Shown piece after piece: positions 184 to 60,937 of a stretch of DNA of 64,000 bases (position 1 is the stretch's first letter; every line of letters begins with the position of its first letter). Source of the DNA: Euryarchaeota archaeon RBG_13_57_23 (GTDB lineage Archaea > Thermoplasmatota > Thermoplasmata > UBA10834); contig MGVW01000005.1 in NCBI GenBank assembly GCA_001800675.1, positions 7,493 through 71,492 of the forward strand, read 5' to 3'. Below the pieces are notes generated by a model that saw only the letters and a program-made list of their open reading frames with translations, made no database searches and was not told where the DNA came from. The position numbers were made by a program, and so were the translations under genes.

Positions 184-702
184 CTAGCCCGACCCGCCCT
201 GGCTCGGGACTCGCCTGTTCTCGCTGGGGAGCGAGAACTCCCTCTCGAGCAGGCCGAGCTGTGTGGTCTCGAACGTCCTAGGGTCGATGGGGACGATCAA
301 GAAGGAGCCCGACATCGCCACCTCTTCGTTGGTCAACTGGATCGCCTTCATGACCGCGCCGAACCCGTTCTCTGTCACGAGGTATTCCAACCCGTCGAGC
401 AGAACCACAGCACCTGCGTTCGTCTTGATGAAATCCGATATGGTCCCATGGATCTTCATCAGCCTGGTGGGCTCAAGGCTTATGATGCCGCCCGTCGGCT
501 TCGACGCCTTCGCGATCCACATGATCGGGCAATCCACACCGTGCAACTGCTGGACTCGATTTGGGTGGCTACGGGTTATCACAAGACCCCTGTGACCCTC
601 GGCGAGGAGCCTCTTGAAGGCCGCATAGGCTCGTACGACCCCCTTGTCGGTGTAGAGGTACGAGCTTCCGCCCTTCAGGATTGGCTCCTCCGCGTCGTTC
701 AT
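184..702 (-). CDS. DUF835 domain protein (KaiC-associated)
   Basis: 172-aa ORF with a conserved DUF835-like core (LDGLEYLVTENGF...). It lies immediately downstream of a KaiC-like ATPase in the same orientation with a 9-nt gap. Confidence 0.7.
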   Translation of the reverse strand: MNDAEEPILKGGSSYLYTDKGVVRAYAAFKRLLAEGHRGLVITRSHPNRVQQLHGVDCPIMWIAKASKPTGGIISLEPTRLMKIHGTISDFIKTNAGAVVLLDGLEYLVTENGFGAVMKAIQLTNEEVAMSGSFLIVPIDPRTFETTQLGLLEREFSLPSENRRVPSQGGSG

Positions 703-711
703 AGCTCCTGT

Positions 712-1386
712 CTACCTCAGGCCAGCTTGGACTGCCAGGCCCTCGTCGGTTATGTCGATCAATTGTCTTCCAGTAGTGTGTTTCGTCCCTCTCATCTTGA
801 GGACCTCGAGGAACTTCCGCCTCACCTTCTCCTCCTCGGGGTATGAGAGCATTATCACACCATCGACCATGTAGGATTCCTGGCTGTGCGAGATATCGTC
901 GTACGACATTTCGGCCGTGACGATGGTCACGCAATTGAACGCCTTCAGGTATGCGAAGAGCTCGTGCATGAACTCCCTGGTCTCGCCCCTCCACTGCAAC
1001 ATGTCCGTCATGGGCGTGATCGGGTCGATCACTATCCTCTGGGGCTGGTACTGCTCGATCTTCTTCTTGATTATGTTCAGCATCTCGCTCGGGTTCTTGA
1101 GAAGAGTGGGGCCGATGTCGATGAAGCTCACCAAGCCCTTCTCGACCTGCTCCTGGTTGTAGAACGAGAAGGATGACAGGAATTTCTGGACGAGCCACTG
1201 TGGCTCGGATATGGCGGTGATGTAAAGGCCCTTCTCATTCCCCTTGGCCCCGTGGAACAGGCTCTGGACCGCGAAAGTCGTCTTGCCGGTACCAGGCTCT
1301 CCGGCGACGAGGATGGCTGCTGGGAACGGAAACCCACCTTGGAGCATGCCGTCGAGACCAGGGATGCCGGTCGTCTTGCGGGTCAT
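712..1386 (-). CDS. KaiC-like RecA-superfamily ATPase (single domain)
   Basis: Walker A GEPGTGKTTFAVQ and a Walker B-like VIDPITPM, preceded by an IPGLDGML motif. The start is refined to ATG at 1386 (MTRKTTGIPGLDGML); the track ORF extends to 1467 and overlaps the upstream gene. Confidence 0.85.
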   Translation of the reverse strand: MTRKTTGIPGLDGMLQGGFPFPAAILVAGEPGTGKTTFAVQSLFHGAKGNEKGLYITAISEPQWLVQKFLSSFSFYNQEQVEKGLVSFIDIGPTLLKNPSEMLNIIKKKIEQYQPQRIVIDPITPMTDMLQWRGETREFMHELFAYLKAFNCVTIVTAEMSYDDISHSQESYMVDGVIMLSYPEEEKVRRKFLEVLKMRGTKHTTGRQLIDITDEGLAVQAGLR

Positions 1387-1387
1387 T

Positions 1388-1795
1388 TCAGAGCACCTCG
1401 GTATCGATGACGAACACGCATCGGTCATCTCCCTTCGACACGCACTTCCGCTCGTGGCAGTAGACATCCTTCCCTGTGCGCTCCTCGAATACCTTGGCCA
1501 GTATGCCTCTCAACATATGGCATGTGGGGGAATCGGCGCTCGATGCCTCGACGGAGCCCACGACGGCGATCGTGTCGCCCTCGAACGATATGTCCGTGAC
1601 CCATCCTTCTTTGATGAGCACTTCTCGGACCCTGTTGAGCTCCGTGCCTGCAGACCTAAGGAGACTGTCACCGATTATGCGCCCACTCCTGTAGAACATG
1701 CCATGGGACGCAAAGGTCATGACGGTCTCAAACAAACGCTTGATCTCCAAGAGCTCTTCCCTGCGAAGCCTGATGCTGCGCTCTGGTTGCTCCAT
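1388..1795 (-). CDS. V4R-domain-like small protein with C-terminal Cys/His cluster
   Basis: 135-aa ORF. Its stop lies 1 nt from the KaiC start (TGAaATG), so it is the first gene of a V4R-KaiC-DUF835 operon. It has a C-terminal CH...C...C pattern. Confidence 0.55.
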   Translation of the reverse strand: MEQPERSIRLRREELLEIKRLFETVMTFASHGMFYRSGRIIGDSLLRSAGTELNRVREVLIKEGWVTDISFEGDTIAVVGSVEASSADSPTCHMLRGILAKVFEERTGKDVYCHERKCVSKGDDRCVFVIDTEVL

Positions 1796-1921
1796 AATAC
1801 CACCTGGTCGGGGTTGTCATCTATCTGTAAGTCGGGACTTATATCTTTTGGTTTGGGACTCTCCCCATGATATTGGCTGGCTTGGGCAGGTTAATCTACT
1901 TCCAGACTCTTTGGAGTCGTC

Positions 1922-2467
1922 GTGTTAGAGGTAGAGGTCAAGTATCGTTCCCCTGGGAACGACATTGTTGAGAAGACCTTGGCACGACTGGGGGCGAAGA
2001 AGATCTCCGACGGGGCCATGGAAGACCTCTATTTTGCGCATCCGATCAAGGATTTCGGCAAGAGCGACGAAGCCCTCCGGCTCAGGAAGACGGCGGACGG
2101 GGCAGAACTGACCTACAAAGGTGCGCGGATGGCGTTGGAGCACACCAAAGCAAGAGAGGAGGTCACGCTGAAGACGGACAACCCCCTTGCGATCCAACGG
2201 ATCTTAGAGAGGCTCGGTTTCAAAGAAGTCTATGTCGTTCGGAAGTCGCGCAGAACCTATCAGCTCGACAAGCTCAGGGTCGAAATCGACGATGTTGAGG
2301 GCTTGGGCGAGTTCGTCGAGCTCGAGATCATGACGGAGTCTCCCGAAAGGAGTGCAACGCTGATGGAGACTGCGAGGAAGGAGCTGGTCCTTGAGAAGAT
2401 CGAGCCCAAGACCTACCTGGAACTCCTGATCGAGAAAGGTCTATCCAAGGAAACAGATAAGAAATGA
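1922..2467 (+). CDS. CYTH-domain protein (class IV adenylyl cyclase / thiamine triphosphatase family, triphosphate tunnel metalloenzyme)
   Basis: The N-terminal EVEVKY signature is the hallmark ExExK of CYTH. GTG start at 1922; 181 aa. Confidence 0.8.
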   Translation: MLEVEVKYRSPGNDIVEKTLARLGAKKISDGAMEDLYFAHPIKDFGKSDEALRLRKTADGAELTYKGARMALEHTKAREEVTLKTDNPLAIQRILERLGFKEVYVVRKSRRTYQLDKLRVEIDDVEGLGEFVELEIMTESPERSATLMETARKELVLEKIEPKTYLELLIEKGLSKETDKK

Positions 2468-2538
2468 CTTCGAGGCGAGGCTTCCACCTCGCCCGTGGTT
2501 TCGGATACTGTCGCAATCCGCGCCCCATCGGGACGAAA

Positions 2539-2787
2539 TCAGAGTTTGTTTATTTTCTCCGTAACGAACGCCTTAATTACCGGGTCGTCGGGGATCGTTA
2601 TTGACTTCTTGTACTTCTCGCTTCCATCTGGAAGGAAGTAACCCCTGGACACCGAGATGAACTCGCTGACTCCTTCGTCGGTTATTGCCTTCTTTCGCGC
2701 CACCTCTAGGAAGTTGTTCTTCCCAAATGGGATCTTCTCAGCGCTCAGCGTCTCGAACTGTACCTTTGTTTCCTTCTCATCATCCAT
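2539..2787 (-). CDS. small conserved hypothetical protein (82 aa)
   Basis: Clean ORF with balanced composition (KIPFGKNNFLEVARKK...), divergent from the CPBP gene. No family assigned. Confidence 0.4.
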   Translation of the reverse strand: MDDEKETKVQFETLSAEKIPFGKNNFLEVARKKAITDEGVSEFISVSRGYFLPDGSEKYKKSITIPDDPVIKAFVTEKINKL

Positions 2788-19978: not shown

Positions 19979-21472
19979 ATGCGGGGTCGTCATCAAAACG
20001 CTGTTACTGAGGGGACAGACTTGCCAATACACGAACCGATTGGGGGCCAGCTGAACATCTTCACCAAGAGCGAGGTCCAGAAGATCCACGGCGCGGCGAT
20101 GGAGGTTCTCAAGAGGCTGGGCATCAAGATCTGGTCCGAGAACGGACGGAAGCTTTTCGCAGATGCGGGCGCGGAAATCGATGACAAGTCGATGACCGTC
20201 AAGATGGACGAGGGATTCGTAATGGACATCATTCACAAAGCACCGTCCTCGTTCGATTACTACGGCCGGGACCCGAGCTACAGACTCCTGATGGGTAAGA
20301 AGAGGGTCCATTTCTCGCTCTGTGGCCAGGGCGTGAAGGTGCAAGACCTCGATGGAAAGGTGCGCCCTGCGACCCTGCATGACCTCGAGAACATGGCCAT
20401 TATTGGGGACTACAGTGAGAACATCCACCACATCTCGATGATGACCACTCCCATGGACGTCCCGCCTGAGACGATGCACATTCGGGCGCTCTGGGGGATG
20501 CTGAAGAACACCGTGAAGACGGTAGACGGATACACTCACGGGACGAGATCGGCCGAGGAGACGATTCAGCTTGGATCGATAGTCAGAGGGTCGACAGACG
20601 CCTTGGTGAAGAAGCCGTTGTTGCTTGGCTTCACGAACCCGGTGAGCCCGATGCAACTCTCGAAGGAGCTCGTGGACGGAGCGATAGTGTATGCGAAGTA
20701 CAAACAGCCTGTGCTCTACGCTCCTGAGGCTCTCTCGGGTGGGACGGCCCCTGCGACCTTGGCCGGCCTCATGGTGCAGCAGACGGCAGAGGTGCTATCG
20801 GGGATCATGGTCTCCCAGCTGGCGAATCCGGGTGCACCTGTGCTCTTCGGCACGGTCTCGGCAGCGATGGACATGAAGACCGGCACACCAGCACTTGGTG
20901 GACCCGAAGTGGGCCTGCTCAACCTGGCTACTGCCCAGCTTGCGAGGCACTACAAGCTACCGTGCAGGGGGACTGGAGGGAATTCGGATTCGAAAGTCGT
21001 CGATGCGCAGGCCGGCATCGAGACCGCCATAAGCATCCTGCAAGCGAGTTACGCAGGTGTCAACTTCATGTACGATTCGGCGGGCTCTTTGGACGGATCC
21101 CTCACCACTTCGTACGAGAAGATAGTCATAGACAACGAGATCTGCGGCATGGTTTCGAGAATACTCAAGGGAATAGAGGTGACAGACGAGACGCTCGCCG
21201 TCGATGAGATAGTCCGGATCGGACCCGCCGCGAGCTACCTAGGCACACCCTACACGCTTCACCACTTCAGGAAAGAGCAATTCATTCCGGAACTGCTTGA
21301 CAGGAAATCGAGAGATTTGTGGGAGGCGGCCGGCAGGAAGGACATGGCGCAAGTCGCACGAGAGAAGGCTAGATGGATACTCGAGAATCACACGCCCGAG
21401 CCCCTTGAGAAGGACGTCTTGAACGAGGGGGATGAATTCGTGAAGAAGGTAGTCAAGGGATACGGTCACTGA
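19979..21472 (+). CDS. MttB-superfamily (trimethylamine methyltransferase-like, COG5598) corrinoid-dependent methyltransferase, non-pyrrolysine type
   Basis: 497 aa, full-length MttB-family pattern (N-terminal EVQKIHGAAMEVLKRLGIKIW, central VDGYTHG...). No in-frame TAG. An in-frame TGA lies 18 nt upstream of the ATG. Confidence 0.8.
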   Translation: MRGRHQNAVTEGTDLPIHEPIGGQLNIFTKSEVQKIHGAAMEVLKRLGIKIWSENGRKLFADAGAEIDDKSMTVKMDEGFVMDIIHKAPSSFDYYGRDPSYRLLMGKKRVHFSLCGQGVKVQDLDGKVRPATLHDLENMAIIGDYSENIHHISMMTTPMDVPPETMHIRALWGMLKNTVKTVDGYTHGTRSAEETIQLGSIVRGSTDALVKKPLLLGFTNPVSPMQLSKELVDGAIVYAKYKQPVLYAPEALSGGTAPATLAGLMVQQTAEVLSGIMVSQLANPGAPVLFGTVSAAMDMKTGTPALGGPEVGLLNLATAQLARHYKLPCRGTGGNSDSKVVDAQAGIETAISILQASYAGVNFMYDSAGSLDGSLTTSYEKIVIDNEICGMVSRILKGIEVTDETLAVDEIVRIGPAASYLGTPYTLHHFRKEQFIPELLDRKSRDLWEAAGRKDMAQVAREKARWILENHTPEPLEKDVLNEGDEFVKKVVKGYGH

Positions 21473-42784: not shown

Positions 42785-44077
42785 CTAGCCGACCTTCTCC
42801 CATTTCTCTAGTTTCATGACGCTCGACAGAGTGCCGCCTTTCTTGATCTCCTCTCGCAGTCTGTTCTCTCGCTCCAGGACGTCCAAGGCCCTGTTCGCGA
42901 CCTCGACCGCGCTCTCCTGGGAGACAACCACGACCCCGCTCTCGTCGCCGATAATCCAGTCGCCCGACATGACCGTGATGCCGCCGCAGACTATCTCGTG
43001 GCCTATCCCGCCGTAACCCTTCGGCTCTCCTGCGTTCGATGCGATGTGTCTCGAGAAGCACGGGAAGCCCAGCTCGATGATGGAGTCGATGTCCCGGGCC
43101 GCCCCGTCGATGACGACCCCAGCCACTCTCTTGGTCTTGCAGCTCCATGATGCTAGCTCGCCCCAGACCGCGATATCGCCGCCGCAGGCGTCGATGACTA
43201 TCACGTCTCCTGGCTTCGCTCTGTCGATGGCCTCGACGGGTTTTGCCCAGTCTCCGTTGATGGTGTGTACCGTGAGTGCCTTCCCGACCATCTTCACACC
43301 GTGAGCAATCCTGGGATGGATGCCCTTCATCGCCCCCTTCTTGTGCTGGGCGTCCGCGACATTTGGGGAAGATACCTTTGAGAACGCGATGAACAAGTCT
43401 TTCTCGGAGTATTTCTTGAACAGCTCCGACCTGACCTTCTTGCGGCTCGTGATGGCCTTCTTCACGTTCCTTGCGGCCTTCGCAACGTCTTTGGCCTTGA
43501 TGATGGCGCCTCCGACGATTATGATAGAAGCCCCTGCCCGGAGAACATCTGGAGCTGTCTCGCTGTTTATCCCGCCAGCCGCCGCGATCGGTATCCCGAC
43601 GGCGTCTACAAGCCCCTTGAGTTCGGACAGAGGCGTGCCTCCGACCATCTGCTCGTCGACCCCGACATGTATGCAGATGTAGTCTGCACCCATCTTCTCG
43701 ATCTCCTTTGCTCGCGCCGCCTTGTCTCTCACGTTGAAGAGATCGACCATGACCTTGGAGCCGTACTGCCGCGCGCTGAGTACCGCTTCAGTTATCGTGG
43801 GGTCTGAGGATATTCCCAATATTACAACGACATCTGCCCCGGACTTGGCTGCCATCTCGACCTCCGCACCACCAACATCGATGGTCTTCATGTCCGCAAC
43901 GATTGTGTGGGTCGGAAATGTCTTCTTGAGTAGCCTGACTATCTCCATTCCCTCGCTCTTGATCAAGGGCGTGCCGGCCTCTATCCAGTCAACTCCTCCT
44001 TTGACTGCGTCTCTGGCAATCTCGATTGCGCGGTCCCCGTGGACGAGGTCGAGTGCTACCTGCAGGACGGGCTTCAT
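42785..44077 (-). CDS. bifunctional 3-hexulose-6-phosphate synthase (OMPDC-fold) / RraA-MenG-like domain fusion protein
   Basis: The N-terminus MKPVLQVALDL...TIVADMKTIDVGG matches HPS (HxlA). The C-terminal 200 aa (GDVIVIDACGGD...VWGELAS...VAGVVIDGAARD...LGFPCF) matches the RraA/DlpA family. Confidence 0.8.
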   Translation of the reverse strand: MKPVLQVALDLVHGDRAIEIARDAVKGGVDWIEAGTPLIKSEGMEIVRLLKKTFPTHTIVADMKTIDVGGAEVEMAAKSGADVVVILGISSDPTITEAVLSARQYGSKVMVDLFNVRDKAARAKEIEKMGADYICIHVGVDEQMVGGTPLSELKGLVDAVGIPIAAAGGINSETAPDVLRAGASIIIVGGAIIKAKDVAKAARNVKKAITSRKKVRSELFKKYSEKDLFIAFSKVSSPNVADAQHKKGAMKGIHPRIAHGVKMVGKALTVHTINGDWAKPVEAIDRAKPGDVIVIDACGGDIAVWGELASWSCKTKRVAGVVIDGAARDIDSIIELGFPCFSRHIASNAGEPKGYGGIGHEIVCGGITVMSGDWIIGDESGVVVVSQESAVEVANRALDVLERENRLREEIKKGGTLSSVMKLEKWEKVG

Positions 44078-44200
44078 CTTCGTTAAGACCTCTGTGCACC
44101 GATAAAAACGTGTCGCACATGCTCACTGACCTGTGCAGACGGTGTCTGCATTTCAGCGTAAGAAACTCTAATATCGGTTCCACTGCATACTCGAAGAGCG

Positions 44201-44950
44201 ATGGCAACCAAGATTGCCGAGAGGGACCGCTGCGTCACGGGCGTCGAGGGCCTCGACACCATCCTCTATGGCGGGATTCCCCGGTCCAACACAGTCCTCC
44301 TGACTGGCAGCTGCGGTACTGGGAAGACATCTCTGGCGCTCGAGTTCCTGATGCACGGGGCCGTCAAGGGCGAGAACTCTCTGTTCGTGAGCGTCACCGA
44401 GAATTCAGAGAAGCTGTTGCAGAACATCATACCATACAAGTTCTTCGACAAGAGCCTCATCAAGTCCGGCCGGCTCGTTTTCGTGGATATGCCTGTGATG
44501 TATGAGCGCCTCGGCCTCACGAAGGCCGAGCTGAGCATGGAGGAGATCGAGCTGCTGGTCAACTCGCTCGCGAGCCTGGCCAAGGAGCTCCAGGCCAAGC
44601 GTCTGGTGATGGACTCCATCACATCGGTCTGCTACAAGCTGAAGACTTCGGAGAAGATCAGGGATTTCATCCTGAAGCTGTCCAAGGCCTTGTCAGACCT
44701 CGGGTGCACTTCGATACTGGTGGGAGAAGTGACCGCCGATTCCACTTCATACTCCACATTCGGGGTAGAAGAGGCCATCGCAGATGGCATCATACTCATG
44801 GCGAACATGGAGAGGCGCGGGGACCTCCTCCGGACGCTCCAAGTGATAAAGATGCGTGGCACGATGCACTCTCGGGCCAAGTACGTGCTAGACCTCACGC
44901 CGGTTGGTGTTCTCTTGGTTCCGCTCCTGAAAGGAGGTAGCACAGGATGA
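44201..44950 (+). CDS. KaiC-like RecA-superfamily ATPase, paralog 1 (intact P-loop)
   Basis: GVEGLDTILYGGIPRSNTVLLTGSCGTGKTSLALEF and Walker B RLVMDSITS. Confidence 0.8.
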   Translation: MATKIAERDRCVTGVEGLDTILYGGIPRSNTVLLTGSCGTGKTSLALEFLMHGAVKGENSLFVSVTENSEKLLQNIIPYKFFDKSLIKSGRLVFVDMPVMYERLGLTKAELSMEEIELLVNSLASLAKELQAKRLVMDSITSVCYKLKTSEKIRDFILKLSKALSDLGCTSILVGEVTADSTSYSTFGVEEAIADGIILMANMERRGDLLRTLQVIKMRGTMHSRAKYVLDLTPVGVLLVPLLKGGSTG

Positions 44951-45540
44951 GCCCGGAGATGGTGAGCGCCCAGCAGATCGCCTCGGAATTGAACGAGACG
45001 CCACCCTCGTCCGCCATATCGCTTCAGATGAGTGTGGACAACTACCTGGATGTTATCCGCGGAGTCGTCGACCTGTTCGCGAACAAGAAGCAGATGGACA
45101 CGATCTATGTCGCCGCGACGATCTCATCGGACGCGATCAAGCGGGTGCTCCAGGCGCTGGACATCGACGACTCGCGAGTGTACTTCGTGGACTGCATCTC
45201 GCACATCATGATGGGCGCGACCGCAACTCAACAGGACGAGCAGACGACGTTGGTCGAGAGCCCGACGATGCTCGAGAACATCATGCTGAAGGTCGAGTAC
45301 CTCATCCGCAGGTCGCAGTCGAAGGACAAGCTGGTCGTCATAGACTCCATCAATTCGCTGGCAATCCACAACAACAACTGGATCCTGTCCGAGTTCCTGC
45401 ACGTTCTGGTCTCCGGGCTGAGGTCCAGGGATGCGTACACCGTCATACTCACCGTGGAGGAGCACTCGACCCCAGAGCTGAACAACATGGTGAGCCTCGT
45501 GTGCGACCACGGCATACACGCGGGCAAGAAGGAGGGATGA
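44947..45540 (+). CDS. RecA/KaiC-fold paralog 2 lacking a Walker A P-loop (predicted inactive ATPase)
   Basis: ATGA overlap with paralog 1. Retains a Walker B-like KLVVIDSINSL, but the P-loop position reads TIYVAATISSDA with no GxxGxGK[ST]. Confidence 0.6.
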   Translation: MSPEMVSAQQIASELNETPPSSAISLQMSVDNYLDVIRGVVDLFANKKQMDTIYVAATISSDAIKRVLQALDIDDSRVYFVDCISHIMMGATATQQDEQTTLVESPTMLENIMLKVEYLIRRSQSKDKLVVIDSINSLAIHNNNWILSEFLHVLVSGLRSRDAYTVILTVEEHSTPELNNMVSLVCDHGIHAGKKEG

Positions 45541-46277
45541 TGATGAGCTTTACCAGCATCGGGATACCAGCTCTTGACGAACACCTAGGAGGAGGGATAC
45601 AGAAGGGCTCCACGGTACTGGTCATGGGCAGCCCGGGCTCGGGCACGGAGTTCTTCGCGAAACAGTTCGCCTCGACTGGTCGGGAGGCCGTGACATACTT
45701 CACATCGACCGAGCGGGATGAGGATGTCCTGTCGGTCATGCGCGAGTACGGGTGGAGAACGGACATGAAGATAATCAACGTGGGCACGAAGTATTACGAG
45801 CGCGTGCTCGCGAAGAAGCTCGAGATCAGCAGGTTCAGGCAGGAGGGGATCACCCTCGGGGATATCAGGAAATTCAAGGAGGCGGACGCCGCGAAGGAGG
45901 AGAACTTCCTGACGTTCCTCGCGTACGAGATCTCGAAACTCAGCCCGCCGTTCCGGGTCGTCATCAATTCCTTGGACTTCTTCCTCGAGAACTACGAGAG
46001 CTCCGAAGTGCTCATGGCTATGCGGACGATCAAGGCGCACACGCAGCACTCAGAGAGCGTGACGCTCATGACGATGCTCAAGGGAGTGCACGATTCCCGC
46101 ATTCAGAGCAGCATTGAGGATTTATCAGATGTGATAATAGAGTTGGACCGCGATAAGGTCGGCCACGAGTTCAAGAAGTACATCATTGTCCAAAAAGTGA
46201 GGAACAAGCCCTCACAGGTGGGCATCATACCGGCGGTCTACGACAGGACGGGGATTCGGCCTGCACAGGTAACTTAG
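45537..46277 (+). CDS. KaiC-like paralog 3 with degenerate P-loop (GSPGSGTE; Lys and Thr replaced)
   Basis: ATGA overlap with paralog 2 and an SD AAGGAGGGA upstream. IPALDEHLGGGIQKGSTVLVMGSPGSGTEFFAKQF. Confidence 0.7.
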   Translation: MMMSFTSIGIPALDEHLGGGIQKGSTVLVMGSPGSGTEFFAKQFASTGREAVTYFTSTERDEDVLSVMREYGWRTDMKIINVGTKYYERVLAKKLEISRFRQEGITLGDIRKFKEADAAKEENFLTFLAYEISKLSPPFRVVINSLDFFLENYESSEVLMAMRTIKAHTQHSESVTLMTMLKGVHDSRIQSSIEDLSDVIIELDRDKVGHEFKKYIIVQKVRNKPSQVGIIPAVYDRTGIRPAQVT

Positions 46278-46442
46278 GTCAGTAGTCGCTTTTCCGGGAA
46301 TTGTTGTCGTTTCTTGCCGAAGTGTCTCTTGAACAAGAAGACTACGTCTTCTTGCTCTGGCCAGCAAATGCGACATAGCCAGATGCATCGCTTCGACAAT
46401 CGGCGAAATGGTTAACACTCAATTCTGATAATCGGCCGAAAA

Positions 46443-46452
46443 GGTATATAAA
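46443..46452 (+). promoter_or_regulatory. BRE/TATA promoter (CGAAAAGGTATATAAAC) for the pilin-like gene
   Basis: Consensus archaeal TATA about 58 nt upstream of the ATG at 46511, with an SD GCAGGAGGA at 46496-46504. Confidence 0.45.
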
Positions 46453-46510
46453 CTCAGCTCGGGCGTATTACAGTCCAAGCGGGCCGAAAGGTCCGCAGGA
46501 GGACTAAACA

Positions 46511-47041
46511 ATGAAGAAGATTTGGGCAATCCGAAAGGATGCCGAGGCGGTGTCCCCCGTCATTGCGACCATCCTGATGGTCGCGATCACCGTCGTTCTA
46601 GCGGCCGTGCTATATGTCATGGTCCTGGGCTTCGGAGGGACATCGACGACGACCCCAGCCGCGACTTATTCGAAGATGACCGCAACCAACGGTCAGAGGA
46701 TCAACATCGTGTCAATAACGAAGACAGATGTCCCGTGGGATGACATAAAGGTGCAGCTGTCTGACGGAACCAACTTCGCTGAGTGGGATACTGCCACAAC
46801 GGACTTGGACGGCGGATCTGCGCTCACGCACAACTACACAACCGACACCCTGGGTACACTGACAGTGTGTCTCCTCGTGACCGATATAGGTGGCAATGGA
46901 TTCGTGAGTGGCACTGACTACTTCGTCGTGTACACCTACGGTGGCGCAACCGGCTTCGTAGCTGGCACAACCTACAGTGCAGCGCTGGTTTACACGGTCA
47001 CTGGCGAAAAGATTGGCACGGGTCAGACCTTCACGACCTAG
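46511..47041 (+). CDS. archaeal type IV pilin-like protein (class III signal peptide, Pilin_N/DUF1628-type N-terminus)
   Basis: MKKIWAIRKDAEAVSPVIATILMVAITVVLAAVLYVMVLGF matches the archaeal pilin N-terminal domain consensus (..GVSPVIGVILMVAITVILAA..). Thr/Gly-rich beta-rich C-terminal part. Confidence 0.75.
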   Translation: MKKIWAIRKDAEAVSPVIATILMVAITVVLAAVLYVMVLGFGGTSTTTPAATYSKMTATNGQRINIVSITKTDVPWDDIKVQLSDGTNFAEWDTATTDLDGGSALTHNYTTDTLGTLTVCLLVTDIGGNGFVSGTDYFVVYTYGGATGFVAGTTYSAALVYTVTGEKIGTGQTFTT

Positions 47042-47168
47042 ACCAATTGTTGCAACCAGCGGTTGGACTGAGCACAAACCCTTTCCTTCACTTTTCATTC
47101 TCTGATGCTGGCGGAAGCCACGTCCTTTTCGCTAGTGCCCTTCGAGGGAAAGTGATATCACCGCCCAA

Positions 47169-47420
47169 GTGATGGCTCTCTCGATGAACGGCAGCGACGG
47201 TCCGCTGGCGATGAACGGCGAAGAGGCCGAGAAGTTCGTGATATCCCTGCTGAGGGAGAGGGGGCCGCTCTCGACCATGCAGATCGAGCGGCTCGCTCGG
47301 AAGGAGCACAAGCGTTGCCCCGACCAGACGGTCATCTTTCTCACGAAGATGAAGCGAAAAGGCCTCATAAAGGGGGAGGCCTCTCTCGAGAAGAGGGGTT
47401 GGCTCTGGTGGGCCGCCTGA
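47169..47420 (+). CDS. small winged-helix DNA-binding protein
   Basis: 83 aa; ISLLRERGPLSTMQIERLARKE...VIFLTKMKRKGLIKGE resembles a PadR/MarR-like wHTH. An overlapping antisense ORF was rejected. Confidence 0.5.
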   Translation: MMALSMNGSDGPLAMNGEEAEKFVISLLRERGPLSTMQIERLARKEHKRCPDQTVIFLTKMKRKGLIKGEASLEKRGWLWWAA

Positions 47421-47432
47421 GCAGAACCTATG

Positions 47433-47855
47433 TCAGTACAGCATCACCGAGGTCTTCGCCAACTGGTCCGACCACTTCTGTCTGGGGTCCTGTGTGTCTA
47501 TCGCCATGCCGATGATCCAGTCGAGGAGCAGGAGCGGCCAGAATATCTTGGAGATGTTCCTGAGCAAGGCCTGGGCTATGTCAAGCTTCCCCGAGAGCGC
47601 GACAACCTTGAGCCTCATCAGCATCTTGCCTACCGTGCCGCCGATGACGTACTCGAAGAACGCGCAATAGAGGAAGAACGCGGCTCCAGGAATCCCTATG
47701 AACATGAAGGAAAACCAAGCGATGCTCAGCACGCTGAAGAATACCATGAAGGGGATCCATATGACCAGCCAGTCGATGACTATGGCTACGAAGCGCCTCA
47801 GCCAGTGCTCCTGGAGTGCCTTGTCCTTGCTAAGGTAATCAAACCCTGTTACCAT
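47433..47855 (-). CDS. RDD-family membrane protein
   Basis: 140 aa, 3 TM, RDD-domain pattern (R..A..IDW...). Confidence 0.7.
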   Translation of the reverse strand: MVTGFDYLSKDKALQEHWLRRFVAIVIDWLVIWIPFMVFFSVLSIAWFSFMFIGIPGAAFFLYCAFFEYVIGGTVGKMLMRLKVVALSGKLDIAQALLRNISKIFWPLLLLDWIIGMAIDTQDPRQKWSDQLAKTSVMLY

Positions 47856-48070
47856 GGTTCTACGACTCCGATGTCTCTCGGATGCCTCGCGCCTCTATAT
47901 TACTTTCTGGGGCAGCGGCCACTCAGATCGCCCGTCTTTCATCACAGGTCAGCAGGAATGTTCTCTTCACGGTGGCGGACGCATATCTACGCTTTACCTT
48001 AAGAATAGTGAGGCCAGATTCGCGTGTTCCTCCCCTATTCCTATATACTGGCTCGGCCACTCTTGTGCCG

Positions 48071-48616
48071 ATGTCAGCGCTGAGGCTCTACGCTCTCCTC
48101 GAGCATGAGGACGACCCGAAGAAGTGCACTGCGGCGAAACTTGTGCGGCTCGGGGAGATATCGGAAGTCAAGGGGCTGGGGCGGGTGCCAAGACGCATCA
48201 TCGTGCTCGACCCAGAATCAGAGAAAGCCCTGTCCAGGGAGGACGTGGAGTCGGCGGAGCGCTTCGGGGTCCTCGTCCTAGATTGTTCATGGAACAAGCT
48301 CACCAAGTTCCCGAGGCTCAGAGCAGGGATGCAGCACAGGGCATTGCCGTTCATGATCGCCGCGAACCCGACCAACTTCGGAAAGGCCCAGAAGCTCTCG
48401 AGTGCGGAGGCTCTTGCGGCTGCAGCCTACATTCTGGGAGATAGGGCACGCGCAGAGCAGTTGATGAGTAGATTCAAGTGGGGGCCAACATTCATCGATA
48501 TCAACAGAGAAAGACTAGAGGAGTACGCGGCGGCGGCCACGAGCGGAGAGGTTGTGTCCGTGCAGAACCGTATGCTAGATGCAGCCAAAAGGAGCAAAGA
48601 TGCGCACACCGACTAG
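48071..48616 (+). CDS. tsr3: 16S rRNA aminocarboxypropyltransferase Tsr3 (DUF367)
   Basis: LEHEDDPKKCTAAKL and VLDCSWNKL motifs. Start refined to ATG at 48071. Confidence 0.8.
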   Translation: MSALRLYALLEHEDDPKKCTAAKLVRLGEISEVKGLGRVPRRIIVLDPESEKALSREDVESAERFGVLVLDCSWNKLTKFPRLRAGMQHRALPFMIAANPTNFGKAQKLSSAEALAAAAYILGDRARAEQLMSRFKWGPTFIDINRERLEEYAAAATSGEVVSVQNRMLDAAKRSKDAHTD

Positions 48617-55546: not shown

Positions 55547-58500
55547 ATGGTCACTAGAGTCGAGGATACGGGAACCACGGACGAGGTACTGTCCCTGATG
55601 CATCCGACTGTGTCAGAGTGGTTCAGGTCGAAGTTCGGAGAGGTCACGGAGGCCCAAGGCATGGCAGTGCCCCTCATCCATGCCCGCAGGAATGTGGTCG
55701 TATCGTCTCCGACAGGGTCAGGAAAGACACTGACCGCATTCCTCGCCATAATCAATGAGCTGATACTGCTGGCAGAGAAGGGGCAGTTGGAGGATAGGAT
55801 CTACGCTGTCTACGTGTCACCCCTCAAGGCTCTGGCCAACGACATCAACGAGAACCTGATCAAGCCCTTGTCGGAGATATCCGAGCTCTTCAGGGCAAAG
55901 GGCTTGACGCCTCCTGAGGTCAAGGTGGCCGTCAGGACGGGCGACACCCTTCCGAGCGAGAGGCAGAGACAAGCGCGCTCGCCCCCTCACATATTCATCA
56001 CTACTCCGGAATCCTTGTCTCTTGTACTGGCGACACCAGTATTCAGCACCAAATTCGCTGGCGTGGACTACGTGGTCGTGGACGAGGTGCATGAGATATG
56101 CGATTCTAAGCGAGGCGTGGCTCTTTCGCTCGCCCTCGAACGTCTCCAGAATCTGTGCAAGAAGGAGTTCGTCAGAATAGGGCTCTCTGCAACAGTTGCC
56201 CCGCTCGAGCAGGTCGCGGAGTACCTGGCGGGGCTCAGCGACGGCAGACCCAGGGAGATCAACGTTGTCGAGGTGTTCAAACAGCGAGATCTCGACCTCA
56301 AAGTGCTCTGCCCGACCAAGGACATGACCGCCCTCTCGTTCGAAGTGGTCAACTCGAAGATGTACGACATGCTGAAGGACATGATCAACCAGCACAAGAC
56401 CACCCTGGTATTCACCAACACCAGGAGCGGGGCCGAGAGCGTCGTCTACAAGCTCAAGGAGCGCGGGCTCGAGAATATCGGTACGCATCACGGGAGCTTG
56501 AGCAGGGAGACCAGGATGGATGTAGAGGGAAGCCTGAGGAACGGGCTCCTGAAAGCGGTGGTCTCGTCCACATCTCTGGAGCTTGGAATCGACATCGGTT
56601 CCATCGACCTCGTTGTCCAGATAGGATCTCCAAAATCGGTGGCAAAGGGCTTGCAACGGGTGGGCAGGGCCGGGCACCAGTACGGGGGCACCTCGACAGG
56701 CAGGATGGTGGTCTTCGAGAGCGACGACCTGGTGGAGTGCGCTGTGCTCTGCAGGGCGGCTCATAGGAAGATGATCGATCGGGTGACGATTCCGGTCAAT
56801 TCGTTGGATGTGCTCGCTCAGACTCTCGTGGGGATGTCCATAGAACGCAGGTGGAAGGTCGAGGATGCCTTCGACCTGATCAGACGTTCGTACTGTTACA
56901 GGGACTTGCCGCTGGAGCAGTTCGATAGCGTCCTCAAGTACCTTGGCGGAAAGGAACAGTTCGAGGGCATATACGCCAAGCTCTGGTACGATGACAAGGA
57001 ACGCGTGTTCGGAAGGAAGCGCGGGGCCAGGATGATATATTATCTGAACCAGGGGACGATCCCTGAGGAGGCGGACTACCAGGTCTACTCCGAGCGCGGC
57101 TCGCCCGTGGGCTCCCTCTCCGAGAAATTCGTTGAGCGCCTCTCACAGGGCGACATATTCGTCCTTGGGGGCAGGAGCTACGAGTTCATCAAGTCCAAAG
57201 CGACCAAGGTATTCGTCAAGAGCGCTAGTGGGCGCAAGCCGACGGTTCCGTCCTGGACCGGCGAGATGCTGCCCAGGAGCTTCGACCTCTCTGTAGCCAT
57301 CGGCCAATTCCGAGGCGAGATGGAGCAGCGCCTCGGGACGATGCCTGAGCAGGCGATCGCAGCGTGGCTGAGGGAGGAATTCGGTCTGGATGAGGGGTCC
57401 TCTACAACCATAGTCAACTACTTCAAGGAGCAAAAGGCCGTCGCGAAGGTGCCGACGGATTCTAGGCTCCTGGTCGAAGGGTACGTCGACGCGACGGGCA
57501 ACAAGAGCGCAATCTTCCACTTCCCGTTCGGCAGGCGTGTCAACGACGCCCTCAGCAGGGCGTACGCATCGGTCCTGTCCGAGAGGCTGCGATCGAATGT
57601 GACCGTATCGGTGACAGACGACAGCTTCATGGTCACAGTCCCCAGGAGTTTCAAGCTTGAGGAGCTCGGCGACATGCTGCGCTCAGAGAACTTGGAAAGG
57701 ATACTGAGGAACGCTGTTCGCGATTCCGAATTGTTCTCGCAGCGGTTCAGACACGTCGCGACCAGGAGCTTCATGGTCCTCAGGAATTACAAGGGAAAGG
57801 AACTCTCCGTGTCGAGGCAACAGCTCCGGTCGAGCCGTCTTCTCGACGCTCTTCACGAGGTCGAGAAATTCCCTGTCATAGCCGAGACCTATGAGGAGAT
57901 ACTGACCGAGGTCATGGACATGGAGCACGCGAGGGAGGTGCTCGCATCCATTGAGAGAGGCGAGAGGAGGATAGAGTATCTGCCATTCTCTGGTGTTCCC
58001 TCACCATTCGCGCACAATGTGATCCTCGTGGGCGTGTCCGACATCGTGCTGATGGAGGACAGGAGCATGCTGCTCAGGGAACTCCACAGGAAGGTGCTGG
58101 AACGGGCGCTGGGGGAGGAGGCCGTATCCGAGTATCAATTCGATCCCGATGTCGTCGAGGAGTACTACGCCGCGAAGTTCCCCCGAATCCAGTCCAAGGA
58201 GGACATCATCGGGGCGCTCCGTCTCGTCGGCCCGATGAACATATTCAGAGAGAAGGGAGAGAACATCTTCTCGCATTCGAAGGTGGCGTTCGACAAGCTC
58301 AGATCATGGGGGACAGAGCTTCTGAGGGAAGGCAAGATCCACTCGGTCTGGATAGGGGAGGATCTGTACGTCTCCTCTGAGGAGTATCCGCTCTACGCGT
58401 GCCTTCACTCGCGCCAGGTTGACCTGGGTCCGAGCGAGAAGGCAATCGTGGACGAGCTCAAGAAATCCCCGAGGACCCAGAGCGAGCTCACGGGGCTCAT

Positions 58501-60937
58501 CAAGCTTGACAAGGAAGAGATGAGAGAATCCCTGAGGAAGCTGGAGACCGCGAACATCGTTTTCAGGTCAGACCTGAGGGGCCAGACAGTGGTCTATTCG
58601 CTTGGGGAGTTCGAGTCGATGCCGAGGAAGGACTGTCTCATGGAGGCGGTGTCAAGACATCTCGCATATCACGCCCCGATTACCATCGACGACCTCGCGT
58701 ACGAGGTCGGAGTAACGGAGCAGGAAGCGGAGGAGGCACTCAATGAATTGGCCATGGACGAAATCGTCGTCTCAGGAAGGTTCGTTGTGGGTGAGCAACA
58801 GCAGTTCATGTTGGCCAGGGACTACCTCCGTCTCAAATCCGAGGGCAGACCTGTCTACGACAGGGAGACCGTACGGGCGTATTCGGAGCGGAAGCAATTC
58901 GGCAAAGTGGGTTCGGTCAGGGAGTTCTTCGACAAGTTCGGCGAGGCCGGGATGATCTATGACATCTTCCAGCGGGTCGACGGATTTGACATGCAGGAGT
59001 TCGGAGATCTCCGTAGCAAAGGGGAGATACTGCTCGGGAGGTTCGTGCGCGGCAGACTGCGCTATGTGCTTGCGGTAGACGCACCACATTTCCTTGGGGT
59101 TTATCGGCGCAATGAACTGGACAGATATGAATCTGAGATTGTTCGGACCATCGAGAGGTTGGGCTCAGGGACATTCCTGGAGATCGCCCAAGCCACTGGA
59201 TTTCCTCCTGATCTGATGAGAGAGCACTTCGATTCTCTTGATAGGAAAGGGTATCTCCTGAGAGAGTACGACGAGGCCGAGTCGTGGAGTTCTAGGAACG
59301 TCTACACAGTCTGCAAATTGGAGCCGGAGATCGAGAACCCGTACGAGCGCATAATAAGGAAATATCTCAGGGGGTTCGGCCCGGTGACGGTTCTCCAAGC
59401 CGCCTCTTACCTTGACGTGGATCCGAGCGAGGCCGAGGTACTCCTCAGAGGCACAGGTGCCAAGAGCATATTCGTGGGCCTCGAGCGGACCGAGATGTTC
59501 ATACTGCCTGACGAGCTCAGGGAGCTCGACCACGACCACGTTCCCGACGAGAGCCTGCGGATCCTCTCGCTTTACGACTCCTTCCTGAGCGACAAGTGGA
59601 CGGAGATAACTTCGAGGTTCGGGGAAGGCTGGATATTCCCACTTGTCAGGCACGGTAGAATCGTTGGAATGGTCGAGAAGTGGCTGCTCGCTGGCTCGGT
59701 CGAGATCCGCGAGATACTGCTGGACGACCCGGACACTCTCCCTCAACTCATACACTCGTTGGACTCGATGATGTCATTCTACAACGCACTGGGCGTTGAG
59801 ATAATCCGGGTACGAAGCATACTTGGGACAGATGTCTCCGAGGTCAAGGACGGGCTTAAGAGCGAGTTCCTCAAGCACGGCTACTCCGAATCGAACGGAA
59901 TGTTGGTCAAGGGCAGGCTTGTCACGGAATGCTTCGATCTTCAGCAGATACTGGAAGTCGCATTCTCCATGCAGCACCTGACTGGCGCCTCGAAGTTCAA
60001 GGACATGAATCAGGCGCTGGAGGCTTATGGAGGGCTTCGCTCGAACCAGGAGGCGCTTCTCCGTGTCAAGAAGTTCGAGCCGATCCCCAAGCTCCTGAAG
60101 CGCGGAGTGGTCCTCAGAGGTCATCTCATACCGGACAGGGTCGGCTTCTGTACCCCTGAGGCGGCCAGCTTGTACAGATCCGCGCGGTTCAGGGACCTCA
60201 GCGCAGACGAGAAGATCGTCACGCGCATCATCAAAGACCAGGAGCCTGTCAAGAGGGACCGACTGCTGGATCTGTCCCCGCTCGGACACGATGACACAAT
60301 CGAGGCACTCAAGGCCTTGTACAGTTCATCCAGGGTCTACATCGACAATTCCAATGCGTATGTCTCCTCCAAGCGACAGAGGACTTCGAAGGAGGCCGCA
60401 TGGACGAAGGTCATGGGACGAATCTTTGACAGCTTCGGGATAATGAGCGCCGAGTCCCTTGCGCTCCTGCTCGGCCACGAGATACCGATGCGCGAGCTGA
60501 GGCGCTGTCTACGGAGTCTGGAGGATGAGGGCAGATTGGTCAAGGGTTACATGCTCCGAGGGTCCGGGACCTTGCACTGGGCCAGCACCGCAGCCTTTGA
60601 GATGCTAGGCAAGGCGAAGTTCTCCGAGATCTTCGTCATGTCCCCGGGGGACATGGTCATCCAGTATCTCAGGGCCACCTTCCGCAACCTGTTGCCCGAG
60701 ACGGGCAGGTTCGCCATATTCCGCGGCACCGAGCTCATCGGATCGTTCGAGGGGAAGTTGAAGGGCGGCACTCTTGAGATATCGAATGCGCAGGGCGAAC
60801 CGGGGTGCGAGAGGATCATATCGGACTACGCGAAGAAGCTCGGCCTTGCTGCATCTGAGCGCGAGGAGGGGCGGATGTCCGAGTGGGAAATCATCGATTT
60901 CTACCAGAAGACTCACCCTGGCATGGGCGCCGACTGA
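55547..60937 (+). CDS. lhr: Lhr-family ATP-dependent helicase, long form (1796 aa)
   Basis: DEAD/DEAH motifs (SPTGSGKTL, DEVH, SAT), an Lhr-core-like winged helix and domain 4, then a C-terminal extension of about 900 aa. The start may be at the MHPTVSEWF Met (55601). Confidence 0.9.
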   Translation: MVTRVEDTGTTDEVLSLMHPTVSEWFRSKFGEVTEAQGMAVPLIHARRNVVVSSPTGSGKTLTAFLAIINELILLAEKGQLEDRIYAVYVSPLKALANDINENLIKPLSEISELFRAKGLTPPEVKVAVRTGDTLPSERQRQARSPPHIFITTPESLSLVLATPVFSTKFAGVDYVVVDEVHEICDSKRGVALSLALERLQNLCKKEFVRIGLSATVAPLEQVAEYLAGLSDGRPREINVVEVFKQRDLDLKVLCPTKDMTALSFEVVNSKMYDMLKDMINQHKTTLVFTNTRSGAESVVYKLKERGLENIGTHHGSLSRETRMDVEGSLRNGLLKAVVSSTSLELGIDIGSIDLVVQIGSPKSVAKGLQRVGRAGHQYGGTSTGRMVVFESDDLVECAVLCRAAHRKMIDRVTIPVNSLDVLAQTLVGMSIERRWKVEDAFDLIRRSYCYRDLPLEQFDSVLKYLGGKEQFEGIYAKLWYDDKERVFGRKRGARMIYYLNQGTIPEEADYQVYSERGSPVGSLSEKFVERLSQGDIFVLGGRSYEFIKSKATKVFVKSASGRKPTVPSWTGEMLPRSFDLSVAIGQFRGEMEQRLGTMPEQAIAAWLREEFGLDEGSSTTIVNYFKEQKAVAKVPTDSRLLVEGYVDATGNKSAIFHFPFGRRVNDALSRAYASVLSERLRSNVTVSVTDDSFMVTVPRSFKLEELGDMLRSENLERILRNAVRDSELFSQRFRHVATRSFMVLRNYKGKELSVSRQQLRSSRLLDALHEVEKFPVIAETYEEILTEVMDMEHAREVLASIERGERRIEYLPFSGVPSPFAHNVILVGVSDIVLMEDRSMLLRELHRKVLERALGEEAVSEYQFDPDVVEEYYAAKFPRIQSKEDIIGALRLVGPMNIFREKGENIFSHSKVAFDKLRSWGTELLREGKIHSVWIGEDLYVSSEEYPLYACLHSRQVDLGPSEKAIVDELKKSPRTQSELTGLIKLDKEEMRESLRKLETANIVFRSDLRGQTVVYSLGEFESMPRKDCLMEAVSRHLAYHAPITIDDLAYEVGVTEQEAEEALNELAMDEIVVSGRFVVGEQQQFMLARDYLRLKSEGRPVYDRETVRAYSERKQFGKVGSVREFFDKFGEAGMIYDIFQRVDGFDMQEFGDLRSKGEILLGRFVRGRLRYVLAVDAPHFLGVYRRNELDRYESEIVRTIERLGSGTFLEIAQATGFPPDLMREHFDSLDRKGYLLREYDEAESWSSRNVYTVCKLEPEIENPYERIIRKYLRGFGPVTVLQAASYLDVDPSEAEVLLRGTGAKSIFVGLERTEMFILPDELRELDHDHVPDESLRILSLYDSFLSDKWTEITSRFGEGWIFPLVRHGRIVGMVEKWLLAGSVEIREILLDDPDTLPQLIHSLDSMMSFYNALGVEIIRVRSILGTDVSEVKDGLKSEFLKHGYSESNGMLVKGRLVTECFDLQQILEVAFSMQHLTGASKFKDMNQALEAYGGLRSNQEALLRVKKFEPIPKLLKRGVVLRGHLIPDRVGFCTPEAASLYRSARFRDLSADEKIVTRIIKDQEPVKRDRLLDLSPLGHDDTIEALKALYSSSRVYIDNSNAYVSSKRQRTSKEAAWTKVMGRIFDSFGIMSAESLALLLGHEIPMRELRRCLRSLEDEGRLVKGYMLRGSGTLHWASTAAFEMLGKAKFSEIFVMSPGDMVIQYLRATFRNLLPETGRFAIFRGTELIGSFEGKLKGGTLEISNAQGEPGCERIISDYAKKLGLAASEREEGRMSEWEIIDFYQKTHPGMGAD

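Follow-up and report, generated by a model that had tools for sequence, protein, structure and literature searches.

A conserved trio of KaiC-like genes with one intact and two degenerate ATPase motifs adjoins a type IV pilin gene in Thermoplasmatota

Three consecutive genes of Euryarchaeota archaeon RBG_13_57_23, here called A, B, and C, encode KaiC-like proteins and form a fixed, translationally coupled three-gene unit, all inspected cases of which come from Thermoplasmatota. They lie on contig MGVW01000005.1, in a 64,000-nucleotide (nt) stretch (positions 7,493 to 71,492) that was analyzed at full length and is referred to as the window. A carries an intact ATP-binding loop, B has none, and the loop of C is disrupted; a gene for an archaeal type IV pilin follows. 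Our preferred interpretation, held tentatively and at close to an even chance, is a heteromeric KaiC-type ring that serves as a regulatory switch and is probably linked to the adjacent pilin. To our knowledge, KaiC-like ATPases are the most expanded putative signaling family of archaea, and the partner set or output is known for almost none of them. The trio can serve as a test case, with fixed composition, strong conservation, a predicted role for each subunit, and a plausible output gene adjoining it. It is well suited to asking if inactivated KaiC domains exert their function as members of mixed rings with active ones. Because the trio is restricted to uncultured Thermoplasmata/Thermoplasmatota, this work must be heterologous.

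Relatives of B numbered 926 in a collection clustered at 90% identity and 648 clusters at 50% identity, and a scan with one genome per species found them in at least 582 species-level genomes. The proteins of the window were mapped onto the best 80 loci with B relatives using targeted phmmer searches and Pfam-annotated contigs; the neighbor content of four loci (L001, L088, L089, and L090) was read from Pfam-annotated contigs. The motif pattern was seen in about 78 orthologous loci (species-level genomes). Motif counts refer to 78 A, 79 B, and 66 C orthologs, and the states of B and C are those of the sequence variants listed. The best 80 loci and all named protein matches came from Thermoplasmatota or from generically named euryarchaeal metagenome-assembled genomes. 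A second profile search, with distant B sequences as the query, returned uncultured Thermoplasmata only and zero cultured organisms. B shares 98% identity with a protein of 'Euryarchaeota archaeon RBG_19FT_COMBO_56_21', and the small protein encoded after the pilin matches a protein of RBG_13_57_23 at 100%. The base composition of the window was not unusual. Features are listed in Table 1; the coordinates of the six-gene region agree with those of a preliminary description of this DNA.

A is the intact member of the trio. It matched the Pfam KaiC model (PF06745) with 187.3 bits against a gathering threshold of 26.6, and its relatives in the PDB are KaiC (E=1e-53) and the Pyrococcus proteins PH0284 and PH0186 (about 1e-35). 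It has a Walker A motif (GSCGTGKTS), a Walker B motif (VMDS), Glu67, and a Lys/Arg finger (IKMRGT). Walker A (GxxGTGKT) was intact in 78 of 78 orthologs, in which the Walker B Asp and the Lys-x-Arg finger were also invariant. A is predicted from these motifs to be catalytically competent. The gene lacks a Shine-Dalgarno sequence, whereas GGAGG precedes both B and C. Since the candidate TATA element lies only about 30 nt before the ATG of A, the operon mRNA is probably leaderless, or nearly so.

B is truncated. The Pfam KaiC model covered its residues 47-190 only (E=1.6e-7, 31.4 bits, same threshold of 26.6). The glycine-rich loop is missing (...LQMSVDNYLDV...), as is the C-terminal quarter of the KaiC domain, and the protein ends ahead of the position of the Lys/Arg finger, so that P-loop and finger are both lost. 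Every B variant listed for the 79 orthologs lacked the P-loop. The Walker B Asp was invariant, and the motifs VESPTMLEN, DSINSLAIHN, and LSEFLH were conserved. PDB sequence and profile searches with B found no meaningful sequence-level relative. The preliminary description had proposed structure prediction for the paralogs, and for B the AlphaFold2 model (predicted local distance difference test, pLDDT, 91) has the RecA/KaiC fold. Foldseek placed PH0284 (2dr3) first, with a template modeling (TM) score of 0.74, followed by KaiC, SSO2452, and RecA. In other archaeal proteins, B-type domains (Pfam DUF7504-like) form the terminal module, in fusion with DUF835, TPR/SNAP, or other domains.

The window contains a second KaiC module (184-1467, minus strand). 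It consists of a gene (712-1467) for a KaiC-like ATPase with an intact Walker A motif (GEPGTGKTT) and 29% identity to A and, 9 nt beyond it, a DUF835 gene (184-702). DUF835 is the domain found fused to the B-type DUF7504 domain in archaeal proteins elsewhere.

C is full-length. In a residue-for-residue alignment, to which PH0186 was added, its P-loop GSPGSGTEF stood against GTPGTGKTV of KaiC, with Lys replaced by Thr and Thr by Glu. All listed variants among the 66 orthologs read G-x-P-G-[SA]-G-[TAM]-E-[FL]. The Walker B position alternated between Asp and Asn, and the Lys-x-Arg finger (K-V-R, QKVRN) was conserved. Distant relatives (about 30% identity in B) kept the A-B-C order, with GSGTE, GAGMD, or, once, GSGKE as the C loop; in the latter case (L085), Lys is present, but Glu is still the next residue. 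The preliminary description had assigned a canonical Walker A to one paralog and degenerate P-loops to two, and had allowed for a reading error in B and C. The alignments and the ortholog variants agree with that assignment, with no intact P-loop in either protein.

One distant relative (L086, B about 35% identical) carries a 370-amino-acid (aa) protein inserted between B and C (1444-2556, plus strand). It has two repeats, read as V4R-like ligand-binding domains with the motif CPFSYGYARA...FPEGEV, and no significant Pfam match. The insert hints at a small-molecule input to the module.

The three genes are arranged as a tightly coupled operon. The ATGA overlaps described earlier are real, at 44947 (A/B) and 45537 (B/C). 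At the A/B junction, an ATGA overlap was present in 40 of 75 loci, and the gap did not exceed 8 nt in 72 of them; the B/C distance was +1 or -4 nt in 52 of 62. With Pfam KaiC scores above the cut-off for all three products and conserved junctions, the early view of three coupled KaiC-fold paralogs is well founded. Phmmer bit-score ratios of the L033 orthologs to the near-identical L028 copies were 0.87 for A, 0.88 for C, and 0.75 for B, with 0.82 for MCM. Judged from sequence conservation, the 'dead' subunits B and C are under strong purifying selection. The degenerate states recur in about 78 related genomes, and at least 582 genomes have a B relative, which argues for a selected design and not decay. 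The motifs are also complementary: A has P-loop and finger, C has the finger only, and B has neither. This is the pattern to be expected of a mixed ring that has only one kind of active site.

The pilin gene is the most constant neighbor of the trio. Its product matched Pilin_N (PF07790; E=3.8e-13, 50.5 bits against a cut-off of 25.2) and TIGR02537 (E=1.8e-12, 46.5 bits against 20). It has a class III signal peptide, in answer to the cleavage-site question raised earlier, with a hydrophobic helix after the site (...EA/VSPVIATILMVAITV...). It matched solved archaeal pilus subunits, with 8fj5 (6e-11) ahead of 8gi2, 9myg, and 8rey. Among loci, the N-terminal helix AVSPVIATILMVAITVVLAAVLYVMV was nearly invariant and the head domain variable; one to three pilin copies stood in tandem per locus. 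A Pilin_N-type gene with its own B recognition element (BRE)/TATA and Shine-Dalgarno sequence, as first described, is thus what is found, and a TATA-like element lay at a similar distance in most of 25 other loci inspected.

A pilin gene directly followed the last KaiC gene in 51 of 56 evaluable loci. When the evaluable loci were grouped by decreasing similarity of B, the same adjacency held in 28 of 28, 2 of 2, and 21 of 26. The last, most distant group had the pilin downstream in 81% of its evaluable loci and a fusion of hexulose-phosphate synthase (HPS) and RraA-like domains (HPS-RraA) upstream in 67%. In L088, the order A-B-C-pilin-pilin was preserved between wholly different flanking genes. 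The adjacency, whose loss in related genomes the preliminary description had named as grounds for giving up its proposal, has therefore survived the comparison.

The pilin transcript appears to carry a conserved structure. A hairpin in the 5′ untranslated region (5′UTR) abuts the Shine-Dalgarno sequence (Table 1). The pilin TATA element lies about 60 nt before the ATG at nearly every locus, and from this position the hairpin is expected at the 5′ end of the mRNA or close to it. The structure was resolved by per-sequence folding anchored on the Shine-Dalgarno sequence and by a covariance model; RNAalifold, run on an ordinary MAFFT alignment of these 5′UTRs, gave no structure, the stems differing in length. 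The hairpin was present in 54 of 59 distinct pilin 5′UTRs (mean z-score -2.9); its stem took 27 different sequences, and most loops were of the GNRA type. As a control, only 4 of 143 other genes with a Shine-Dalgarno sequence had a comparable hairpin. A covariance model built from 14 sequences returned pilin 5′UTRs only at E<0.1 in a search of 960 kb on both strands. Two-sided changes were seen in seven of eight pairs and 0 of 500 shuffles reached the observed covariation, in an alignment that had been fitted to the model. Rfam gave no family match for the hairpin. It is a small, well-supported new cis-element that could be an mRNA stabilizer or a translational control site, and it suggests post-transcriptional control or stabilization of the pilin mRNA in this lineage.

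For the trio itself, we propose the following mechanism. A, B, and C would be translated in similar quantities from a single mRNA, probably leaderless, and would assemble as one KaiC/RecA-type ring, most simply A2B2C2. A alone would bind and hydrolyze ATP. C would be a pseudo-ATPase that keeps the glycine loop and whose trans-acting Lys-x-Arg finger completes or senses the active site of A across the interface. B, with neither P-loop nor finger, would present an adaptor face for partners; the use of the B-type domain as a terminal module of multidomain archaeal signaling proteins supports such a role, as do the KaiC/DUF835 pair of the window and the insert between B and C in L086. The nucleotide state of A would switch the conformation of the ring, and an output partner would read it. 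The output would probably be tied to the pilin, for instance through a coupling between the pilin pool or pilus assembly on one side and gene expression or the assembly ATPase on the other, which would resemble the action of the KaiC-like proteins ArlH and CirA on the archaellum. From the operon structure and the complementary motifs, we infer a heteromeric A-B-C ring; its proposed stoichiometry, the order of its subunits, a role in regulation and not in mechanics, and the choice of the pilin as target belong to the same proposal.

The elements of this proposal have precedents. Inactivated KaiC domains (iKaiC) are an established category (PMC5847659, citing Makarova 2017). Modules of KaiC and inactivated KaiC have been proposed as archaeal signal-transduction hubs (Makarova, Galperin & Koonin 2017, as cited in PMC5847659 and PMC10983859), a view that the gene junctions, motifs, and B-type fusions described here fit. 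B and C both show the defining features of iKaiC, a KaiC fold and a disrupted Walker A motif that is conserved as such. In 2016, KaiC-family ATPases (KaiC arCOGs) were reported to be strongly associated with the type IV pilus loci of archaea (PMC4858521). Since both iKaiC domains and the KaiC-pilus linkage are already published, the trio was conceptually anticipated, though it is well defined and strongly conserved. The idea put forward in the preliminary description is in this respect not new. Like the trio, iKaiC systems consist of single-domain KaiC-fold proteins, some with destroyed Walker motifs, encoded beside active copies and tending to adjoin type IV pilus genes. Unlike them, the trio is a fixed, coupled three-gene unit with a deviant C loop (GxxGxG-T/A/M-E) and a truncated B. 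It also differs from KaiC-pilus loci in adjoining a stand-alone gene of the major-pilin type and not an assembly operon.

Among individual KaiC-like proteins, CirA and ArlH are regulators of motility (PMC10983859). ArlH (FlaH) resembles the trio in being single-domain and in regulating a machine related to type IV pili, through the archaellum motor ATPase ArlI. However, ArlH is a homo-oligomer with an intact Walker A motif, whereas two of the three trio subunits are degenerate. The ArlH model NF052589 was the best NCBIfam match of C, and with 55.1 bits for C and 37.4 for A against a cut-off of 215, neither is ArlH. No arlI, arlJ, or other arl gene was found in the window or in the related loci. 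CirA of Haloferax volcanii is a motility repressor, genetically tied to pilin-mediated regulation and the hydrophobic N-terminal domain of pilins (PMC10983859). Unlike the trio, it is a single protein encoded in the arl cluster and requires its Walker A motif; the likeness does not imply orthology. Cyanobacterial KaiC, the best sequence match of A (mainly its CI domain), shares the RecA-type fold and forms a hexameric ring. KaiC has two fused domains in about 500 aa, KaiA and KaiB partners, and Ser/Thr sites, whereas the trio proteins have one domain each in 197-249 aa. The circadian KaiC models NF006799 and TIGR02655 gave A 155 bits against 408 and 112 bits against 546, so A is not a circadian KaiC. 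No KaiB-type family was found among the Pfam-annotated neighbors in L001, L088, L089, and L090 or among the 44 open reading frames (ORFs) scanned in the window.

Several observations weigh against a pilin-linked regulatory ring. The pilin starts 93-270 nt past the preceding stop and has its own TATA element, which points to a separate transcription unit. In six loci (L047, L067, L068, L070, L073, and L090), from Methanomassiliicoccales-like and Aciduliprofundum-like genomes, the trio is followed by unrelated genes and no pilin. HPS-RraA lies upstream almost as often as the pilin lies downstream, so part of the adjacency may be due to inherited gene order. Some lineages dispense with C, which is absent from about 10 loci arranged A-B-pilin, all of one subclade (L052, L053, L063, L065, L074, L076, L078, L079, L081, and L082), and its absence there makes A-B the minimal core. 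The A orthologs of this subclade form a distinct sequence group with the Walker A context GSVGTGKTSICIE. In an alignment of A with KaiC domain 2, the segment 'hiSTITD' stood opposite 'veEAIAD' of A; as the autophosphorylation residues are not conserved, a KaiC-style phospho-switch is unsupported.

The separate promoter and the wide gap before the pilin, together with the trio loci that have no pilin, would suit a general housekeeping or signaling KaiC/iKaiC hub with no specific link to the pilin, the adjacency being inherited gene order in one Thermoplasmata clade. Such a hub is a credible, though rather unlikely, explanation. HPS-RraA, Tsr3, and RDD genes are syntenic with the trio too, and the surroundings are housekeeping genes (MCM, primase, ATP synthase, and Cdc6). 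The conservation of the trio equals that of MCM, and the wide species-level distribution of B relatives also fits a general function. However, the pilin was the most persistent neighbor in the most divergent loci and was still attached in L088, where both flanks differ, and KaiC-family genes are independently associated with archaeal pilus loci (PMC4858521).

The proteins may also form no common complex, in which case A would be a homohexameric ATPase of the PH0284 or ArlH kind and B and C would act separately, as regulators or substrates. Archaeal single-domain KaiC-like proteins have crystallized with identical chains, six for PH0284 (2dr3) and three for PH0186 (2zts), and the lineages without C point the same way. 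Against this stand the stop/start overlaps conserved at both junctions, the complementary loss of motifs, with the finger kept in C and finger and P-loop lost in B, and the strong purifying selection on both dead subunits. We regard separate roles as improbable, with a small share of the likelihood, and return to the heteromeric ring.

A more specific version of that ring can be drawn. It would be an obligate, asymmetric A2B2C2 ring with one catalytic subunit type, would monitor the membrane pool or the assembly state of the pilin through its N-terminal helix, would feed back on pilin synthesis through the 5′UTR hairpin, and would be a prokaryotic counterpart of Elp456 or of Rad51-paralog-type RecA rings. 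Taken jointly, these features make a speculative claim to which we assign a low probability. Eukaryotic Elp456 and the Rad51-paralog complexes are hetero-oligomeric rings of RecA-fold proteins with degenerate ATP sites, whereas the trio ring is only presumed; unlike in the Elp456-like design, one trio subunit is a fully intact ATPase. C matched Elp4/PAXNEB (PF05625) with 29.4 bits against 28, over residues 5-45 only. B reached 20.6 bits with Elp5/Iki1 (PF10483), below the cut-off of 22.5. No trio protein matched Elp6 (PF09807), and no Elp protein was among the top 50 Foldseek matches listed for B. These partial or sub-cut-off matches give an Elongator identity little support, and Foldseek ranked archaeal KaiC-like proteins, KaiC, and RecA first. 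The likeness to Elp456 is thus best described as an analogy of design and not membership.

A recombination mediator like Rad55-57, RadB, or the Rad51 paralogs, that is, a heteromeric RecA-family complex acting on DNA, was also considered. The trio belongs to the RecA superfamily, the Joint Genome Institute (JGI) name for its proteins is that of COG0467 (the KaiC/GvpD/RAD55 family), and genes for MCM, primase, PolD, Lhr, and OGG lie within the window. However, A scored 155 and 134 bits on KaiC-type models and 30 or less on RadB/RadA models (cut-offs 172-403), the replication genes are gone from the neighborhood in distant loci, and no conserved nuclease or helicase partner was found. This makes a recombination role very unlikely. 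RadB and GvpD identities were rejected on Pfam and NCBIfam family-model scores. Read as a defense system, the locus gave no convincing PADLOC matches.

The preliminary description had stressed the lack of pilus machinery near the trio. A Pfam scan of 44 ORFs of the window revealed no gene of the PilB/ArlI-type ATPase or TadC-like kind, though several of these ORFs had no match, so that a divergent platform could escape. Neither the window nor about 85 related loci showed a pilus ATPase, a PilC/TadC platform, or a prepilin peptidase, and a Walker A motif scan of the window and related loci returned ECF and ABC ATPases only. The observation stands, but its significance was overstated. Archaeal pilin genes commonly lie remote from their machinery (PMC12448462, PMC4858521), and a lone pilin gene is ordinary, as in Cuniculiplasma, whose pilin genes are about 500 kb from the machinery (PMC12448462). 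The missing PilB/TadC is therefore no case for the trio as a motor. That the KaiC-like ring is an unconventional assembly motor for the adjacent pilin, in place of a PilB/ArlI-type ATPase, would account for the unseen machinery but is highly improbable, as such distances are common, the pilin combines a canonical class III signal peptide with homology to conventional pilus subunits, and the trio has no membrane-anchoring or platform-binding feature.

Table 1. Features of the trio region, in window coordinates.
Feature	Position	Strand	Length (aa)	Description
Six-gene region	44201-47855			A, B, C (+), pilin (+), small wHTH (+), RDD (-)
Candidate TATA element (ctctaatatc)	44166-44175	+		About 30 nt 5′ of the A ATG; from sequence reading
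Gene A	44201-44950	+	249	Single-domain KaiC-like ATPase; Pfam KaiC E=3.7e-55
Gene B	44947-45540	+	197	Truncated inactivated KaiC-like (iKaiC, DUF7504-like) subunit
Gene C	45537-46277	+	246	Full-length KaiC-like pseudo-ATPase; Pfam KaiC E=4e-22, 79.1 bits
Pilin BRE/TATA (ccgaaaagGTATATAAA)	46436-46452	+		TATA at 46444-46452; from sequence
Pilin 5′UTR hairpin	46479-46496	+		GCGGGCC-GAAA-GGUCCGC; 3′ arm abuts Shine-Dalgarno GGAGGA (46498-46503)
Pilin	46511-47041	+		Archaeal type IV pilin (PilA/Pilin_N type); class III signal peptide ...RKDAEA/VSPVIATILMVAITVVLAAVLYVMV...
Small winged helix-turn-helix (wHTH) protein	47172-47420	+	82	From ATG at 47172 (probable start); 82-aa form identical to P0271
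RDD-family membrane protein	47433-47855	-		Pfam RDD E=4.8e-13; convergent with upstream genes

The identities first given to the last two genes of the region were confirmed, by the Pfam RDD match and, for the small wHTH protein, by AlphaFold2 and Foldseek. The latter protein had no Pfam or NCBIfam match and only 222 homologs were found. Its model (pLDDT 78) has the topology H-β-H-H-β-β and resembled the DNA-binding domains of PadR, MarR, BlaI, and Fur in Foldseek (TM 0.6-0.7, E only about 2e-3). From this model, it is probably a lineage-restricted transcription regulator. As parts of the module, however, neither gene belongs to the conserved core. The wHTH gene was missing from loci in which the similarity of B was below about 60%. 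The RDD gene was kept in 12 of the 37 most distant loci (32%), in which GYD and universal-stress-protein-like genes lay between it and the pilins; it is a syntenic neighbor whose membership in the module is doubtful. In the same 37 loci, Tsr3 was present in 27%, and MCM, M48, and wHTH genes in none.

Upstream of the trio, the HPS-RraA gene (42785-44077, minus strand) joins an OMPdecase domain of the HPS type to an RraA-like aldolase domain. It is divergent from A at a distance of 123 nt and was found upstream of the trio in about 80% of loci. HPS-RraA and A may share a bidirectional control region. Downstream, a candidate archaeal C/D-box small RNA (sRNA) lies at 47921-47974 on the minus strand (Rfam sR2, 30.7 bits against a cut-off of 42, E=4.6e-4; also sR9 and sR12). 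The C (GUGAAGA), D′ (CUGA), C′ (UGAUGA), and D (CUGA) boxes were recognized by eye, with guide regions of about 12 nt. The ORF at 47882-48616 seems over-extended at its 5′ end, which would place the candidate sRNA between the RDD gene and the point at which Tsr3 probably begins. Elsewhere in the window, an uninterrupted ORF of the MttB (trimethylamine methyltransferase) family (19979-21472, plus strand, 497 aa) has no in-frame stop, which suggests a non-pyrrolysine member of the family. A 1796-aa Lhr-type helicase (55547-60937, plus strand; DEAD, WH_Lhr, and DEAD_assoc domains) has an AlkZ-like DNA glycosylase domain at its C terminus.

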